Part shown: positions 3,280 through 8,887 of the stretch, piece after piece
Position numbering within the stretch: the first letter of the stretch is position 1
Layout of the letters: the number at the start of each line of letters is the position of its first letter
The notes under the pieces: generated by a model
What the model was told of the DNA's origin: nothing
What the model saw: only the letters and a program-made list of their open reading frames with translations
Database searches by the model: none
Program-made: the position numbers and the translations under genes
Origin: an uncultured archaeon
Lineage (GTDB): Archaea > Asgardarchaeota > Heimdallarchaeia > Heimdallarchaeales > Heimdallarchaeaceae
Direction: 5' to 3'
NCBI GenBank assembly: GCA_964590855.1
Contig: CAZPXJ010000010.1
Span: forward strand, 1 to 32,000
Length of the DNA: 32,000 nucleotides

Positions 3280-4755
3280 TTAAATTTGTTGAATTGCATT
3301 TAAGATTAGATCTGGCCAGAATCCTAGCACTAAGATGATGACTACTATGATTGTCAAGGTTATCATCTGGAAGATTGATATCTTTACCTTCTCCTCTGGA
3401 GCTTCAGGTTCATCAAACAACATTATCTTGAGAATGTATAGATAACCTCCTAAAGCTAGTAAGGAGTTGATAATAGCAAAAACAACAAGTGCTATGTTAT
3501 TACCGAGAGCTCCTTGTCCACTGAAAGTAGATACAATAACCATTAGTTTTGAAGTAAAACCTGCGGTTATTGGAATACCTCCTAGTGATAGAAGTGCTAT
3601 GGTCAAGATTATACCAATAAATGGTGATCTTCTTCCAATTCCTTTCATATCTCGTATGTCTCTTGAGCCAACAGCTGCTATTAGGGTACCACTGAGCAAA
3701 AACAGAGCTCCTTTTCCGATTGAATGAGTCAATATGTGGAATACAGATGCCTGAACACCCAATGTTGTTAGAGACCCTATACTTAGAATGATGTAACCTA
3801 GATGAACTGTTGTGGAATATGCAAGTATTCTCTTGAAATCAATGACATCCTTTCTCCAGAATTGAGCGAATACTAAGAAGTTTCCTTCAATCATGGTAAG
3901 AATACCAATCCAAGATAGAACAACTCCTGCAGGTACCATATTTGGATATGCAGAGTAGAGTGTTCGGTATATTCCAAAAGCACCAGCCTTAACAACAATT
4001 CCAGAAAGTAAAGCTGAAATGGTTGAAGGAGCTGAACTGTGTGCATCTGGTAACCAGGCGTTCAAGAACAACATAGCTGCTGTAACTGAGAAACCTGTTA
4101 TGTATAGTGCCAATATCAGTCCTAAAATTCCGCTTTCACCAGGTACAATAACTGTAGCTAATGCTTCGAAATTAACTGTTCCAAAGAATCCATAGGTCAA
4201 TGCAGTTGCTAAGAGAACTAGCATACTTCCAGCAGTCGACATGATGAAGTATTTCAGTGATGCTTCTACAGCTCCACGTTTCATCCTATCAAAGGCTACA
4301 AGTACATATGCGCTTAGAGCAAACATTTCCCATCCAATGAATAGGGTGATGAAATTATTTGCCATTACAGTTGCGGTCAATCCTGTGAGCAAAGTAAGAA
4401 TCAGAGCATAGTAGTAACCTATTCCTTCCTTTCCTTTCATGTAACTGACGCTGAATAATACAGCCATCCATACAAGGAAACTGAAGATAGTGATTAATAC
4501 TGCTTGAATCATTCCATACTCTAACAATAAACCACTTTTATCATTTAGGTATACTCGCCATCCTTCATCAAAGACGGAAACTATAGCTAAGAGAAAAGTT
4601 CCTAATGCTGCAAGATTTGCAAGAACGTGGTTAACACTGTCTGTGCATATCTTTAGTTTTGCAAGATATTTCTTGAACTGTTGAAGCAAAGCAATTAAAC
4701 CTGCACCAGCAATTGGTACAAGTAGTAATAAAGTTAGATATGTATCTAGAGCCAT
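3280..4755 (-). CDS. antiporter-like membrane subunit (NuoN/NuoM, MrpD-like) of the membrane-bound hydrogenase complex
   Basis: 491 aa and polytopic. It has the GWEMFALSAYVLVAF motif typical of ND2/ND4-type subunits. Its ATG overlaps the stop of the upstream NuoL-like gene (TAATG at 4753-4757). Confidence 0.85.
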   Translation of the reverse strand: MALDTYLTLLLLVPIAGAGLIALLQQFKKYLAKLKICTDSVNHVLANLAALGTFLLAIVSVFDEGWRVYLNDKSGLLLEYGMIQAVLITIFSFLVWMAVLFSVSYMKGKEGIGYYYALILTLLTGLTATVMANNFITLFIGWEMFALSAYVLVAFDRMKRGAVEASLKYFIMSTAGSMLVLLATALTYGFFGTVNFEALATVIVPGESGILGLILALYITGFSVTAAMLFLNAWLPDAHSSAPSTISALLSGIVVKAGAFGIYRTLYSAYPNMVPAGVVLSWIGILTMIEGNFLVFAQFWRKDVIDFKRILAYSTTVHLGYIILSIGSLTTLGVQASVFHILTHSIGKGALFLLSGTLIAAVGSRDIRDMKGIGRRSPFIGIILTIALLSLGGIPITAGFTSKLMVIVSTFSGQGALGNNIALVVFAIINSLLALGGYLYILKIMLFDEPEAPEEKVKISIFQMITLTIIVVIILVLGFWPDLILNAIQQI

Positions 4756-6611
4756 TAGACCATCACCACCACTAGAACTACGACGGCAACTACCGCCACT
4801 ACGGATCCAAGGATCATATTCCAGTTTATCTTACCTGTCTTAAGGAAGGATATTTTTTGACCTATCCAGAAGAGTGGTTGAACAAACACCATGTTATAGA
4901 AATAATCCATATAGAAACCATTTTCGACGAAAGTTCGCATAGCTTTGAAAGGTTTGATATTCTCAACAAACTTGACTTCTGTTTGTCCTTTACCATATAG
5001 CAAGAAAGCTAAACCAATACCTAGAATGATAGCAATAAGTGAGCTAACTAGAGCAACTATTCCACCAGCATCAGTTGGTAGTAGCATATAATCGCCGCCA
5101 TTTTCCCCTGCTACAAAGTGATGAACAGGTCCTTCAAGGACGAAACCAGTTGCTACTACAAGAACAGCTAGAATTCCAAGGACTATTCTCATGATGTATT
5201 TTGGTTTATGGACATGAGCTCCTCTATTCTTTCCATGGAACATCATCAAGAACATTCTAGAGGCATATAATGCTGTTAAGAAAGCTGTTAATACAGCTAC
5301 TACAAGAACAAACCAATAAACTGGATTTGTTTCTGTACCAACATATGCTGCTCTTATAATAGATTCTTTTGAATATCCACCGTTAGTTAAGATTGGAACA
5401 CCAATTAAACCAAGAACACCTACAAGCATGAAACCATAGGTCCATGGTAGTTCTTTTCTTAATCCACCCATCTTTGTAATGTCTCGTTCATTAGCTACTG
5501 AATGTATAACTGCACCAGCAGACAAGAACAGTAAAGCCTTGAAGATTGAGTGAGATAACAGATGAAGTTGTCCTGCAATAAGGCCATCATCTAGTCCTCT
5601 AATTGAGAAAGCTAAGAACATATAGCTGAGTTGAGATATTGTACTGTAAGCTAAGACTCTCTTCAGATCCGTTGTTACTAATGCACCTATAGCTGCACCA
5701 ATACAAGATATACCTGCAAGTATCATCAGAATGATATAGAAAGAACTCTCATTCCAAATACCTGAATATCTAGCTACTAAATATATGCCTGCTTTAACCA
5801 TAGTTGCTGCATGTATGAGTGCTGAAACGGTTGTTGGACCTTGCATTGCGTCTATATCAACTGTGTCACCAGAGCTCAGCCATGATTGTAATGGAAACTG
5901 TGCTGACTTTGATATTGGCGCAAGTAGTAATAGTATCCCCATAAATACGGGATAAGGTGCCAAATCTGAGCCTTGAATAAGTATTGGATTTGATAAAGCT
6001 GCTTGAGTATTCAAATGATAAGCCCAAGCTAAGAAGCCTAAGAAACCAATATCGCCTATACCAGTCATGATAAGTGCTTTAATTCCGCTTTTAGCTGCTT
6101 TTGTACCTTCCTCTCCTTTCTTCATGAAGTAATGACCTATTAGGAAACATGAACAGAGTCCCACAATTTCCCAACCAACGAACAAAAGAATCATATCGGC
6201 TGCTAATATCAGTAGAAGCATTCCTCCTACAAATAATTGCATAAAGAACCAATATCGAGCTTTGTTATCATCGTCTTTCATGTATTCTAGTGAGAAGAAC
6301 ATAATAAGCATACTAAGTATGGAAACTATCAGTAGCATTAAACCAGACAAGGAATCAAAATAGAAACCAGATAGTAAATTCCCGTTTGACAACCAGTTGG
6401 ACCATGAGAATGATTCAGTAACTGGGTTTTCAGGGTCTATAGAAGCAAAGATTATGATAGACATAATAGCTGAAACTGCAACAGGTATTACACTGAAGAT
6501 ATCTCTAATTATGTGCCATTTCTTTAATAACAAAGACAGAAAAGCTCCTATTATTGGGGCTAAAACTGCGATTGATGCTAGTATTAATATTGTACTTGCC
6601 ATCCATATCAC
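4755..6611 (-). CDS. NuoL/MrpA/MbhH-like antiporter-like membrane subunit with a C-terminal lateral-helix region
   Basis: 618 aa. It has the VGWEIVGLCSCFLIGHYF motif (compare WEGVGLCSYLLIGFW of NuoL). The C-terminus has an amphipathic stretch (FVENIKPFKAMRTFVENGFYMDYFYN...) followed by a final TM anchor. It overlaps the neighbouring genes by 1-4 nt. Confidence 0.9.
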   Translation of the reverse strand: MIWMASTILILASIAVLAPIIGAFLSLLLKKWHIIRDIFSVIPVAVSAIMSIIIFASIDPENPVTESFSWSNWLSNGNLLSGFYFDSLSGLMLLIVSILSMLIMFFSLEYMKDDDNKARYWFFMQLFVGGMLLLILAADMILLFVGWEIVGLCSCFLIGHYFMKKGEEGTKAAKSGIKALIMTGIGDIGFLGFLAWAYHLNTQAALSNPILIQGSDLAPYPVFMGILLLLAPISKSAQFPLQSWLSSGDTVDIDAMQGPTTVSALIHAATMVKAGIYLVARYSGIWNESSFYIILMILAGISCIGAAIGALVTTDLKRVLAYSTISQLSYMFLAFSIRGLDDGLIAGQLHLLSHSIFKALLFLSAGAVIHSVANERDITKMGGLRKELPWTYGFMLVGVLGLIGVPILTNGGYSKESIIRAAYVGTETNPVYWFVLVVAVLTAFLTALYASRMFLMMFHGKNRGAHVHKPKYIMRIVLGILAVLVVATGFVLEGPVHHFVAGENGGDYMLLPTDAGGIVALVSSLIAIILGIGLAFLLYGKGQTEVKFVENIKPFKAMRTFVENGFYMDYFYNMVFVQPLFWIGQKISFLKTGKINWNMILGSVVAVVAVVVLVVVMV

Positions 6612-7850: not shown

Positions 7851-8887
7851 CAAACTCCTGCCATTAATAATCCAACAGTTAGCATTAATGTTCCAATAGT
7901 AATTGGTAGAATTATTTTCCATGCTAACCTTACTGTTTGATCGATTCTTATACGAGAGATTATGGTTCTCAAGAATGACATCAATGCTATGACAGCTATT
8001 AGTTTCAAAGTAAAGAATATCAAGTTCAAGAATCCCATCAAAACAGGATTGGCAACCACTATGCCTACGTAAGGACCACCTAGGAATAGTGTCACAATTA
8101 AGCCTCCAATGAAGAATGCGCCTATTCTTTCTCCAAGAACAATGAGAGCATATCTCCAGCCACCGTATTCTACTAACCATCCATCGGCAAGTTCTGTATG
8201 AGCTGTTGGTGAGTCAAATGGGAACTCTTCGAGTTCTGCCATCATGACAATCATTGAAACCGCAAATGCAATAACAAGAGCAATGATTAGCACTAAGTTC
8301 CTACCTACACCTTCACCAGTGAATAATTTTGCACTGATTGTACTTAATGAGAAATCAACATCTTGCCCCACTCCTACAATCAAAGCAGGAACGAGTAAGC
8401 TGAATCCCAAAGGTATTTCAAAACTTAGGACTTGCAATAATGATCTTGTGGCACCAGTTTGTGCGAATGGATTCTTTGTTACTATTCCCATGAAATAAAT
8501 CAATAATCCAAGAGATAGAAGTATGAATAAAACAAAAAATATGTCAAATTCAAAACTTGTGAATCCAGCAGCTTGAGTGGTTCCATCTTTGAAAACAGAT
8601 ATAGGGATCATTAAAGCCCCTGTTACCGCGGAAGCAAAGAATAATATTGGTAAAACAGTCATCCAAAACTTACTTACACCCCTTGGAATAATAGTTTCCT
8701 TAGCGGTAAGTTTTACTATATCGTAAAGAGGTTGCAGAAATGGTGGACCTTTTCTACTTTGTCCTCTGGCGTATATCTTTCTATCAAGCCAGTCTATAAA
8801 TAAGGCCATGATAACAATAAAGATTATACCTGGGACAGTTATCATTAATAGTATTTCAATCCATGACATTTCACGTAAATCCTCCAT
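7850..8887 (-). CDS. NuoH/HycD/MbhM-like membrane subunit
   Basis: 345 aa. The string [30 protein letters not shown] matches the NuoH/ND1 N-terminal signature (ER...A..Q.R.GP...G..QP.AD..KL..KE). The rest is polytopic. Confidence 0.85.

Follow-up and report, generated by a model that had tools for sequence, protein, structure and literature searches.

Organization of the locus

We analysed a 32,000-nt stretch of DNA from a Heimdallarchaeaceae archaeon (contig CAZPXJ010000010.1; this whole stretch is called the window), in which two gene modules of a putative [NiFe] hydrogenase are found, namely, a membrane arm of six genes and a catalytic unit of four genes (Table 1). The arm occupies positions 8887-3280 of the minus strand, and its open reading frames (ORFs) encode NuoH-, NuoA-, NuoJ-, NuoK-, NuoL- and NuoN/M-like proteins, exactly as an earlier sequence-only reading of this DNA had described them, with stop/start overlaps from nuoH to nuoN of 4, 1, 4, 4 and 1 nt. 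Both Pfam and NCBIfam place all six products in the expected family. Two of the start sites deserve mention. The NuoL-like protein has 618 aa when read from a GTG codon, while public gene calls begin three codons later and give 615 aa, and with this ATG start the fourth overlap becomes a 5-nt gap; the NuoA-like protein of 134 aa corresponds to an internal start inside a 243-aa ORF. The order of the genes had been equated with that in complex I operons, which holds for J-K-L-N, a canonical succession, but not for H-A, since nuoA comes first in nuo operons. The maturation genes hypE and hypF, whose domains we confirmed, precede the arm as had been noted, a gap of 188 nt separating the hypF stop (9076) from the nuoH start (8887). 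The catalytic unit, nuoC-D-I-B, reads from 31435 to 28702. We consider it highly likely that the two modules together encode a ten-subunit, membrane-bound, energy-converting group-4 [NiFe] hydrogenase, predicted to be driven by ferredoxin or flavodoxin, to evolve H2 and to export ions, and that its two halves have been split by an inversion.

Table 1. Coordinates of the hydrogenase genes and of neighbouring features in the window
Feature	Position	Strand	Length and supporting matches or remarks
NuoH/MbhM-like anchor, docking the peripheral arm	7850..8887	-	345 aa; Pfam NADHdh, 228 bits
NuoA/ND3-like subunit with three transmembrane helices	7449..7853	-	134 aa; Oxidored_q4, 25.6 bits
NuoJ-like subunit, full-length and unsplit	6922..7449	-	175 aa; Oxidored_q3, 47.5 bits
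NuoK-like subunit	6608..6925	-	105 aa; Oxidored_q2, 77 bits
NuoL-like antiporter-like subunit with lateral helix and C-terminal anchor	4755..6611	-	618 aa; TIGR01974, 437.6 bits
Second antiporter-like subunit, NuoN/M/MbhH-like	3280..4755	-	491 aa; Proton_antipo_M, 193.7 bits
NuoC/MbhK-like subunit	30914..31435	-	173 aa; Complex1_30kDa, 96 bits
[NiFe] large subunit, NuoD/MbhL-like	29660..30913	-	417 aa; MbhL, 258.9 bits
NuoI/MbhN-like subunit, 2x[4Fe-4S] ferredoxin-type	29177..29647	-	156 aa; Fer4 families
Hydrogenase small subunit, NuoB/MbhJ-like	28702..29184	-	160 aa; Oxidored_q6, 106 bits
hypF, [NiFe] maturation carbamoyltransferase	9076..11436	-	five HypF Pfam domains
hypE, [NiFe] maturation protein	11449..12477	-	AIRS and AIRS_C domains
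ORF X, conserved, unannotated	31552..32000	-	upstream of nuoC; runs off the window end; ~228 aa in relatives
Hydrophobic, probably membrane protein	28301..28672	+	123 aa; candidate accessory gene, predicted only, not placed as a subunit
Flavodoxin	13376..13882	-	Flavodoxin_3/_5 domains
Methyladenine glycosylase paralogue 1	2750..3211	+	Adenine_glyco domain; left end of inverted block
Methyladenine glycosylase paralogue 2	27740..28195	-	right end of inverted block; 70% identical to the L087 gene next to DUF8058 and APH

The catalytic module is closest to membrane-bound hydrogenases

The C-D-I-B genes had been said to retain intact [NiFe] ligands, and this is the case. The large subunit carries the Ni-Fe motifs RACGICSAVH and DPCFSC with all four cysteines, and the residues R81-C83-G-I-C86...H90 and D375-P-C377-x-x-C380-x-x-R383 are invariant across 14 relatives. 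In sequence searches against PDB chains, from which all scores against solved structures given here are taken (in bits), the large subunit matches MbhL of the membrane-bound hydrogenase (MBH) over its full length with 258.9 bits, followed by HycE (209.9) and Nqo4 (178.5), and complex I NuoD aligns only with residues 26-298, that is, the N-terminal two-thirds. An extension of 34 aa lies C-terminal to DPCFSCTNR; extensions of this kind are typical of large subunits that HycI processes, and this one is probably cleavable. The small subunit scores best against MbhJ (179 bits), ahead of HycG (111) and complex I NuoB (109), and its motif GGCNGCDIE is of the CxxC type and aligns with GSCNGCDIE of MbhJ, whereas complex I NuoB has a tandem CC (GLACCAIE). 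Two CxxCxxCxxxCP motifs occur in the NuoI-like translation, and with these, the small-subunit cysteines and the Ni-Fe cysteines, the ligands of the redox cofactors are complete. The predicted catalytic subunits are closest to those of MBH, as seen in the matches to MbhL and MbhJ and in the CxxC motif. The best homologues of the large subunit are 78-92% identical to it, and those named by NCBI belong to Candidatus Heimdallarchaeaceae; the relatives of the NuoA-like and NuoL-like proteins include those in the closed genomes of Candidatus Heimdallarchaeum (Ca. H.) aukensis and Ca. H. endolithica, at ~65% identity. Taken over these searches, the best homologues with a source name are all labelled Heimdallarchaeaceae or Heimdallarchaeota, which places the source of the window among the Asgard archaea, in the class Heimdallarchaeia.

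The membrane arm is largely of the complex I type

The subunits of the arm point to complex I to different degrees. The NuoH-like protein scores about equally against MbhM (102 bits) and E. coli NuoH (97), and the NuoK-like protein prefers NdhE (60) and NuoK (42) to MbhG (36). The NuoL-like protein reaches 437.6 bits against the TIGR01974 NDH_I_L model (cutoff 407.5), and in the PDB it scores 259.7 bits against E. coli NuoL, compared with 149 against MrpA and 103 against MbhH. It had been credited with a lateral helix (HL) and a C-terminal anchor, and our AlphaFold2 (AF2) model (predicted local distance difference test, pLDDT, 80.6; predicted TM-score, pTM, 0.84) bears this out, with helices at 547-590 and then a transmembrane (TM) segment at 595-617; the top 50 Foldseek matches of this model are all NuoL, ND5 or NdhF, with a TM-score of ~0.8 across ~620 columns. 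We also asked if the lateral helix might be shorter than that of E. coli, in keeping with an arm that has one subunit less; a pairwise alignment with E. coli NuoL gave a hint of ~25 fewer C-terminal residues, but Foldseek aligns the full lengths. The channel residues of the NuoL-like protein are present, namely, the GWE glutamate, the KSAQ lysine, HxxxHxxxK, and the K-E in TM12. The last subunit of the arm had been described as NuoN/M-like. It does belong to the antiporter-like family (Proton_antipo_M), but its closest relatives among solved structures are MbhH (159.5 bits) and MbsH (148) rather than NuoN and NuoM (127-132, with NuoN at 132). The cluster thus contains two Proton_antipo_M proteins, and the same number is found in all the Heimdallarchaeaceae relatives.

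The sequence-only reading had proposed, as a check, to compare the proteins of 134 and 175 aa with NuoA and NuoJ on the one hand and with MbhI and MbhD on the other. For the 175-aa protein, Oxidored_q3 gives 47.5 bits versus 19.7 bits, below the cutoff, for MbhD; its residues 5-170 align to M. smegmatis NuoJ, a full-length match, while MbhD and MbsD reach residues 2-81 only. The assignment of the 134-aa protein is the weakest in the arm, with an Oxidored_q4 score of 25.6 bits against a cutoff of 23.3. A phmmer search of the PDB with this single sequence was uninformative, the top match being a spurious ArnT segment and NdhC and NuoA appearing at E-values of 0.4-1.5, and a family profile (A3) was therefore needed. 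This profile matches only ND3, NuoA and NdhC chains in the PDB (best E-value 7e-4), and not MbhI. In addition, the operons of Hodarchaeales and Bathyarchaeia have a homologue of its gene at the nuoA position. The two small subunits, as judged by these comparisons, are homologues of NuoA and NuoJ, not of MbhI or MbhD, and the predicted NuoL (with lateral helix and anchor), NuoJ, NuoK and NuoA subunits are closest to complex I. Since the catalytic pair best matches MBH while NuoL, NuoJ, NuoK and NuoA best match complex I, the predicted enzyme is a mosaic, in which a catalytic head of the MBH type sits on an arm that is largely of the complex I type.

Conserved synteny links the arm to the catalytic unit

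The two halves lie only 0.5-3.3 kb apart in four Heimdallarchaeaceae relatives, namely, L001, L086, the P0133 contig and the closed genome of Ca. H. aukensis. In L001, whose large subunit is 80% identical, the order is hypF-H-A-J-K-L-N, a flavodoxin gene on the opposite strand, hypD-hypC-X-C-D-I-B and hycI (X being ORF X of Table 1), and 3.3 kb separate the arm from C-D-I-B. In the P0133 contig and L086, gyrB, a radical-SAM gene, an OB-fold gene, a DUF5752 gene, hypE, hypF and H-A-J-K-L-N are followed by a DUF8058 gene and a convergent B-I-D-C-X-hypC-hypD unit, the distance from nuoN to nuoB being ~0.5-0.6 kb. In Ca. H. aukensis, hypE-hypF-HAJKLN is followed by a 257-aa gene and hycI, both between the halves, and by a convergent B-I-D-C. 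In Hodarchaeales, all the subunits are encoded in a single operon, A-B-C-D-H-I-J(split)-K-L-N, with hycI beside it. The large subunits of all these relatives keep both Cys motifs. Furthermore, hypF lies directly upstream of nuoH in every relative examined, with the order hypE-hypF-nuoH conserved; no C-D-I-B unit comes with a NuoH of its own, and no arm with B, C, D or I genes of its own. The identity of each subunit to its counterparts in the relatives is 60-90%, similar for both halves. The proposal that the arm belongs to a true hydrogenase is upheld by this synteny: because the modules are adjacent in the four relatives and form a single operon in Hodarchaeales, the arm and the C-D-I-B loci almost certainly form one predicted enzyme.

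The same data bear on an alternative in which the arm is part of a separate, non-hydrogenase enzyme of the complex I or Fpo type, whose quinone- or methanophenazine-type NuoBCDI would be encoded elsewhere, C-D-I-B being unrelated. Such an alternative would fit the 20 kb that lie between the two loci in the window and in L006, and it would fit the best scores of NuoL, NuoJ, NuoK and NuoA, which are those against complex I chains. However, in the four relatives the arm adjoins a C-D-I-B unit with Ni-Fe ligands, with hyp genes and hycI interleaved, and in Hodarchaeales it shares an operon with it; hypE-hypF always precede nuoH; and a C-D-I-B unit without NuoH would have no membrane anchor. A hidden quinone-type partner is also disfavoured because Wu et al. 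(2022) reported a single MBH in each closed Heimdallarchaeum genome and could discern no pathway to a terminal electron acceptor. We therefore regard a separate complex I-like or Fpo-like enzyme as extremely improbable.

A probable inversion would account for the separation of the two halves

The genes from gyrB to nuoN are collinear in the window and in L086, but in the window this block is turned around with respect to DUF8058-B-I-D-C, and inverting positions 3212-27739 (~24.5 kb) restores the L086 layout. The block is likewise inverted relative to the P0133 contig and Ca. H. aukensis. Both of its ends are abutted by methyladenine glycosylase paralogues in inverted orientation, which share 58.5% amino acid and 67% nucleotide identity. 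In L006, the closest relative for which data exist, the halves are separated as well, but neither the second glycosylase gene nor the DUF8058-like one is present, and L087 has yet another junction downstream of nuoN. As the junctions differ among the relatives, the region downstream of nuoN appears to be a rearrangement hot spot. Homologous recombination between the glycosylase paralogues could have caused the inversion, and they are suitably placed for it, but we rejected this idea as 67% nucleotide identity is too low for such a claim and the junctions in L006 and L087 differ. The 20-kb split is probably secondary, being consistent with a single inversion of ~24.5 kb, and would not be a sign of independent function.

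Independent function is what a second alternative supposes, with the arm alone acting as an Mrp-like cation/proton antiporter and C-D-I-B as a stand-alone H2-evolving hydrogenase. In all solved structures of complex I and MBH, NuoH and NuoA form the docking site and cavity for NuoB and NuoD, and both NuoH and NuoA are encoded here with the arm, not with C-D-I-B. The arm also lacks subunits of the MrpE/F/G type, the adjacency of the modules and their shared hyp context are conserved in the relatives, and the split is accounted for by a recent inversion. A precedent has been published for Thermoprofundales subgroup E, where the halves of a split MBH cluster are active separately, and the two modules would form separate transcription units here. 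Nevertheless, on the balance of these points we hold that independent modules are very unlikely.

Predicted function of the hydrogenase

Most likely, the predicted enzyme evolves H2 with electrons from ferredoxin or flavodoxin and couples this to the pumping of ions. Its genes would be expressed as two transcription units, hypE-hypF with nuoH-A-J-K-L-N, and (hypD-hypC)-X-nuoC-D-I-B, where the co-transcription of the hyp genes with the arm, 188 nt apart, is only putative. Reduced ferredoxin or flavodoxin would deliver electrons to NuoI, and these would pass through the clusters of NuoI and NuoB to the [NiFe] site in NuoD, where protons would be reduced to H2. The free energy would be passed through NuoH, NuoA, NuoJ and NuoK to the two antiporter-like subunits, which would export H+ (or Na+) and thereby power ATP synthesis in an organism that ferments and gives off H2.

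Several observations weigh against this reading, or against parts of it. First, the halves being 20 kb apart in the window and in L006, co-regulation is not evident from the layout, and neither hycI nor hypA, hypB, hypC or hypD was found within the window. Second, the scores of the NuoA-like protein are weak; its AF2 model, built from a 19-sequence alignment, has low confidence (pLDDT 60.6), and Foldseek returned no match for this model in the PDB, so that the NuoA call comes from sequence profiles and gene position, not from the fold. The evidence for this putative assignment is weak but consistent. Third, some of the residues expected along the ion path are replaced. The NuoK-like protein has the TM2 Glu, but the second Glu, in TM3, is replaced by Val, and in the motif ITGFSVTAAMLFLNAWLPDAH of the second antiporter-like subunit, the proximal one, the canonical Lys of TM7 is replaced by Thr. 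This Thr is common to the orthologues in L001, L086, L087, Hodarchaeales (L002) and L007, another Heimdall locus; the same column has Lys in MbhH and NuoN, and Glu in MbsH. Owing to the TM7 Thr and the NuoK without its second Glu, the number and kind of the ions pumped, and the pumping stoichiometry, are uncertain.

These departures also suggest another possibility, namely, that the Heimdall enzyme is mechanistically unlike both MBH and complex I, in ways that have so far gone undescribed: its ion path could be rewired (leaving a single effective pump, or serving a different ion), some of its subunits could be specific to the lineage, and flavodoxin could take the place of ferredoxin as donor. 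This possibility is prompted by the TM7 Thr, the NuoK without a second Glu, the ORF X and DUF8058-like genes that travel with the cluster, and the frequent flavodoxin neighbour; we think it possible, but rather doubtful. As for the direction of the reaction, group-4 hydrogenases are reversible in principle, and nothing in the sequence sets the direction. The same complex might thus be run in reverse, oxidizing H2 while an ion gradient drives the reduction of ferredoxin or flavodoxin, like Eha/Ehb and Ech of methanogens. However, the family has been predicted to be fermentative, without terminal acceptors and disposing of electrons as H2 (Wu et al. 2022), and Appler et al. (2024; 10.1101/2024.07.04.601786) also predict proton reduction, which makes operation in reverse unlikely in our opinion.

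Comparison with known hydrogenases and complex I

An enzyme of the predicted H2-evolving kind shares features with several known systems. Like the MBH of Pyrococcus furiosus (group 4d, PDB 6CFW), it has a catalytic pair closest to MbhL and MbhJ, a second antiporter-like subunit closest to MbhH, and a NuoH-like protein comparable to MbhM. However, MBH has the MrpE/F/G-like MbhA-C, a split NuoJ (MbhD/E), MbhI, and one antiporter-like subunit with no NuoL, whereas the window encodes NuoA, a full-length NuoJ and a NuoL with a lateral helix, and no Mrp E/F/G genes. With complex I, NDH-1 and Fpo (the forms of 11-14 subunits), the predicted enzyme has in common NuoA, NuoJ, NuoK, a NuoL with HL and TM16, the NuoH-B-C-D-I core and the J-K-L-N order. 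It differs from them in that its NuoD retains the Ni-Fe cysteines, its NuoB has CxxC instead of CC, its antiporter-like subunits number two instead of three (L, M and N), and no NuoEFG or FpoF is encoded here. Thus, of what marks a complex I, the membrane subunits NuoA/J/K/L are found, but a ligand-free NuoD, a tandem-CC NuoB and three antiporter-like subunits are not; in contrast, three marks of a group-4 hydrogenase are found, namely, the Ni-Fe motifs, a CxxC small subunit, and a NuoH-like anchor with antiporter-like subunits (linked to the catalytic unit in five related genomes). Of the maturation apparatus of such enzymes, the window has hypE, hypF and the 34-aa extension, while hycI, hypC and hypD are seen beside the cluster in relatives only. 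E. coli formate hydrogenlyase (FHL; Hyc/Hyf, PDB 7Z0S) and the energy-converting hydrogenase-related (Ehr) complexes belong to the same complex I/group-4 superfamily, with HycE at 210 bits and HycG at 111 bits, but FHL is coupled with formate dehydrogenase, and its C and D subunits are fused into one. Ehr large subunits, as Marreiros et al. are said to have described in 2013, lack the Ni-Fe cysteines that are present in the window enzyme.

The sequence-only reading had implied that such an enzyme would be new, which is not so, as complex-I-like hydrogenases of Asgard archaea were published in 2022-2024 (Wu et al. 2022; Appler et al. 2024; Valentin-Alvarado et al. 2024). Appler et al. (2024; bioRxiv 10.1101/2024.07.04.601786) reported that Heimdallarchaeia, and Heimdallarchaeaceae explicitly, encode group-4 [NiFe] hydrogenases, including the new subgroups 4j, 4m, 4p and 4q, with a NuoBCDI arm, a shortened membrane arm and a predicted transfer of electrons from ferredoxin to H2. 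The window enzyme agrees with theirs in lineage, in having NuoBCDI without NuoEFG, in a competent Ni-Fe NuoD, and in a complex-I-like arm lacking at least one antiporter-like subunit; it differs in that the halves are separated by an inversion, and we found no difference in kind. Valentin-Alvarado et al. (2024; PMC11291895) described a "complex I-like NiFe-hydrogenase" of Freyarchaeia and Atabeyarchaeia, as well as Asgard complexes with an HL helix and two antiporters. Those Freyarchaeia and Atabeyarchaeia enzymes come from other Asgard classes, include up to eight Nuo-like genes, and are syntenic with Hdr, group-3 hydrogenase and ATP synthase genes, whereas the neighbours here are hyp genes. 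Finally, the orthologous cluster was annotated as the single MBH of Heimdallarchaeum by Wu et al. (2022). The window enzyme shows what characterizes an Asgard complex-I-like [NiFe] hydrogenase, that is, an Asgard origin, NuoBCDI with an active-type NuoD, an arm with an HL helix, and fewer antiporter-like subunits. The reading of the locus as a putative complex-I-like hydrogenase is correct, but the enzyme type is already described (10.1101/2024.07.04.601786; PMC11291895; Wu et al. 2022).

With a working [NiFe] hydrogenase site on a complex-I-type arm, such enzymes are extant intermediates that link hydrogenases of the MBH type with respiratory complex I, and their occurrence in the archaeal lineage closest to eukaryotes bears on the origin of complex I and on hydrogen-based models of eukaryogenesis. 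This significance has already been recognized in print (Appler et al. 2024; Valentin-Alvarado et al. 2024). What the window adds is a clean case of the halves being separated by an inversion, and our analysis of it adds evidence that group-4 hydrogenases far outside the Asgard archaea commonly have NuoA/J/K-like subunits (next section). Four leads are left, namely, the Thr in TM7, ORF X with its conservation, the gene resembling DUF8058, and the neighbouring flavodoxin gene.

NuoA-, NuoJ- and NuoK-like subunits in group-4 hydrogenase loci

A set of NuoA, NuoJ and NuoK had been thought unusual for a hydrogenase, which our survey contradicts. We examined 80 species-representative loci recovered with an alignment of the large subunit, all of them with both Cys motifs, from Omnitrophota, Bacillota, Planctomycetota, Elusimicrobiota, Bathyarchaeia, Thermoplasmatota and others. 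About 70 of the 80 contain a NuoA-like ORF, a count that may be biased in that the profile includes two proteins from such loci. When relatives fetched separately were scored along with the 80 (87 loci in total), a NuoA-like ORF was found in 77, and in 66 of these 77 it lies directly upstream of nuoB. Five NuoA-like ORFs were sampled from the 80 loci (three bacterial, two archaeal), and four of them pass the Pfam cutoff for NuoA (Oxidored_q4). Most loci also have a NuoK-like gene and three antiporter-like subunits, and many have a NuoJ-like gene; the gene order in Bathyarchaeia is A-B-C-D-H-I-J-K-N-L-N.

Loci L011-L085 make up a very widespread, mostly uncharacterized bacterial and archaeal group-4 clade with the order antiporter x3-(NuoJ)-NuoK-NuoA-NuoB-C-D-H-I. 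The enzymes of these L-N-N-(J)-K-A-B-C-D-H-I loci resemble that of the window in their large subunits (42-47% identical), both Cys motifs, the NuoA- and NuoK-like subunits and often a NuoJ-like subunit, but they mostly have three antiporter-like subunits, and their antiporter genes lie upstream. The predicted Heimdall enzyme is set apart from these by its gene arrangement and its arm with two antiporter-like subunits, not by the presence of NuoA, NuoJ and NuoK.

Neighbouring genes

Several genes near the two modules recur in the relatives. ORF X lies between hypC and nuoC in L001, L006, L086 and the P0133 contig, and is absent in Ca. H. aukensis; a tblastn search with the L001 protein matches positions 31995-31561 of the window with 51% identity. 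Among public records, the exact NuoC product occurs only on contigs shorter than 1 kb and the NuoD product does not occur; judging from the relatives only, hypD-hypC presumably lie upstream of ORF X, beyond the window. The 123-aa hydrophobic protein is 42-45% identical to the product of the DUF8058 gene (precomputed Pfam annotation) found immediately downstream of nuoN in L086, L087 and the P0133 contig, and its gene has remained beside nuoB here. Pfam gave no match for ORF X, the 123-aa protein, a 229-aa ORF or a 93-aa ORF.

The flavodoxin encoded in the window is a possible electron donor, and its homologues adjoin the hydrogenase cluster in L001 and L086. In the Omnitrophota locus L024, a flavodoxin match lies next to nuoI, and in Ca. 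H. aukensis a flavodiiron-like gene adjoins nuoC.

Three other observations concern the window. The gyrA gene (19565-23365, plus strand) contains an intein with a LAGLIDADG homing-endonuclease domain; the gyrA of L006 is without this insert of ~1.3 kb, the tblastx match jumping from position 21245 to 19941 of the window, and the gyrA of Ca. H. aukensis has an intein. Of the VIT1 iron-transporter model, a 109-aa ORF (12590-12919, plus strand) covers no more than the C-terminal half (positions 117-213 of 214), and L087 has a full VIT1 gene of 266 aa at the same position, divergent from hypE; the 109-aa ORF may be a truncated gene. Lastly, a tRNA-Ser (GCT) gene at 12944-13028 on the minus strand is the sole RNA gene that tRNA and Rfam scans detected in the window.

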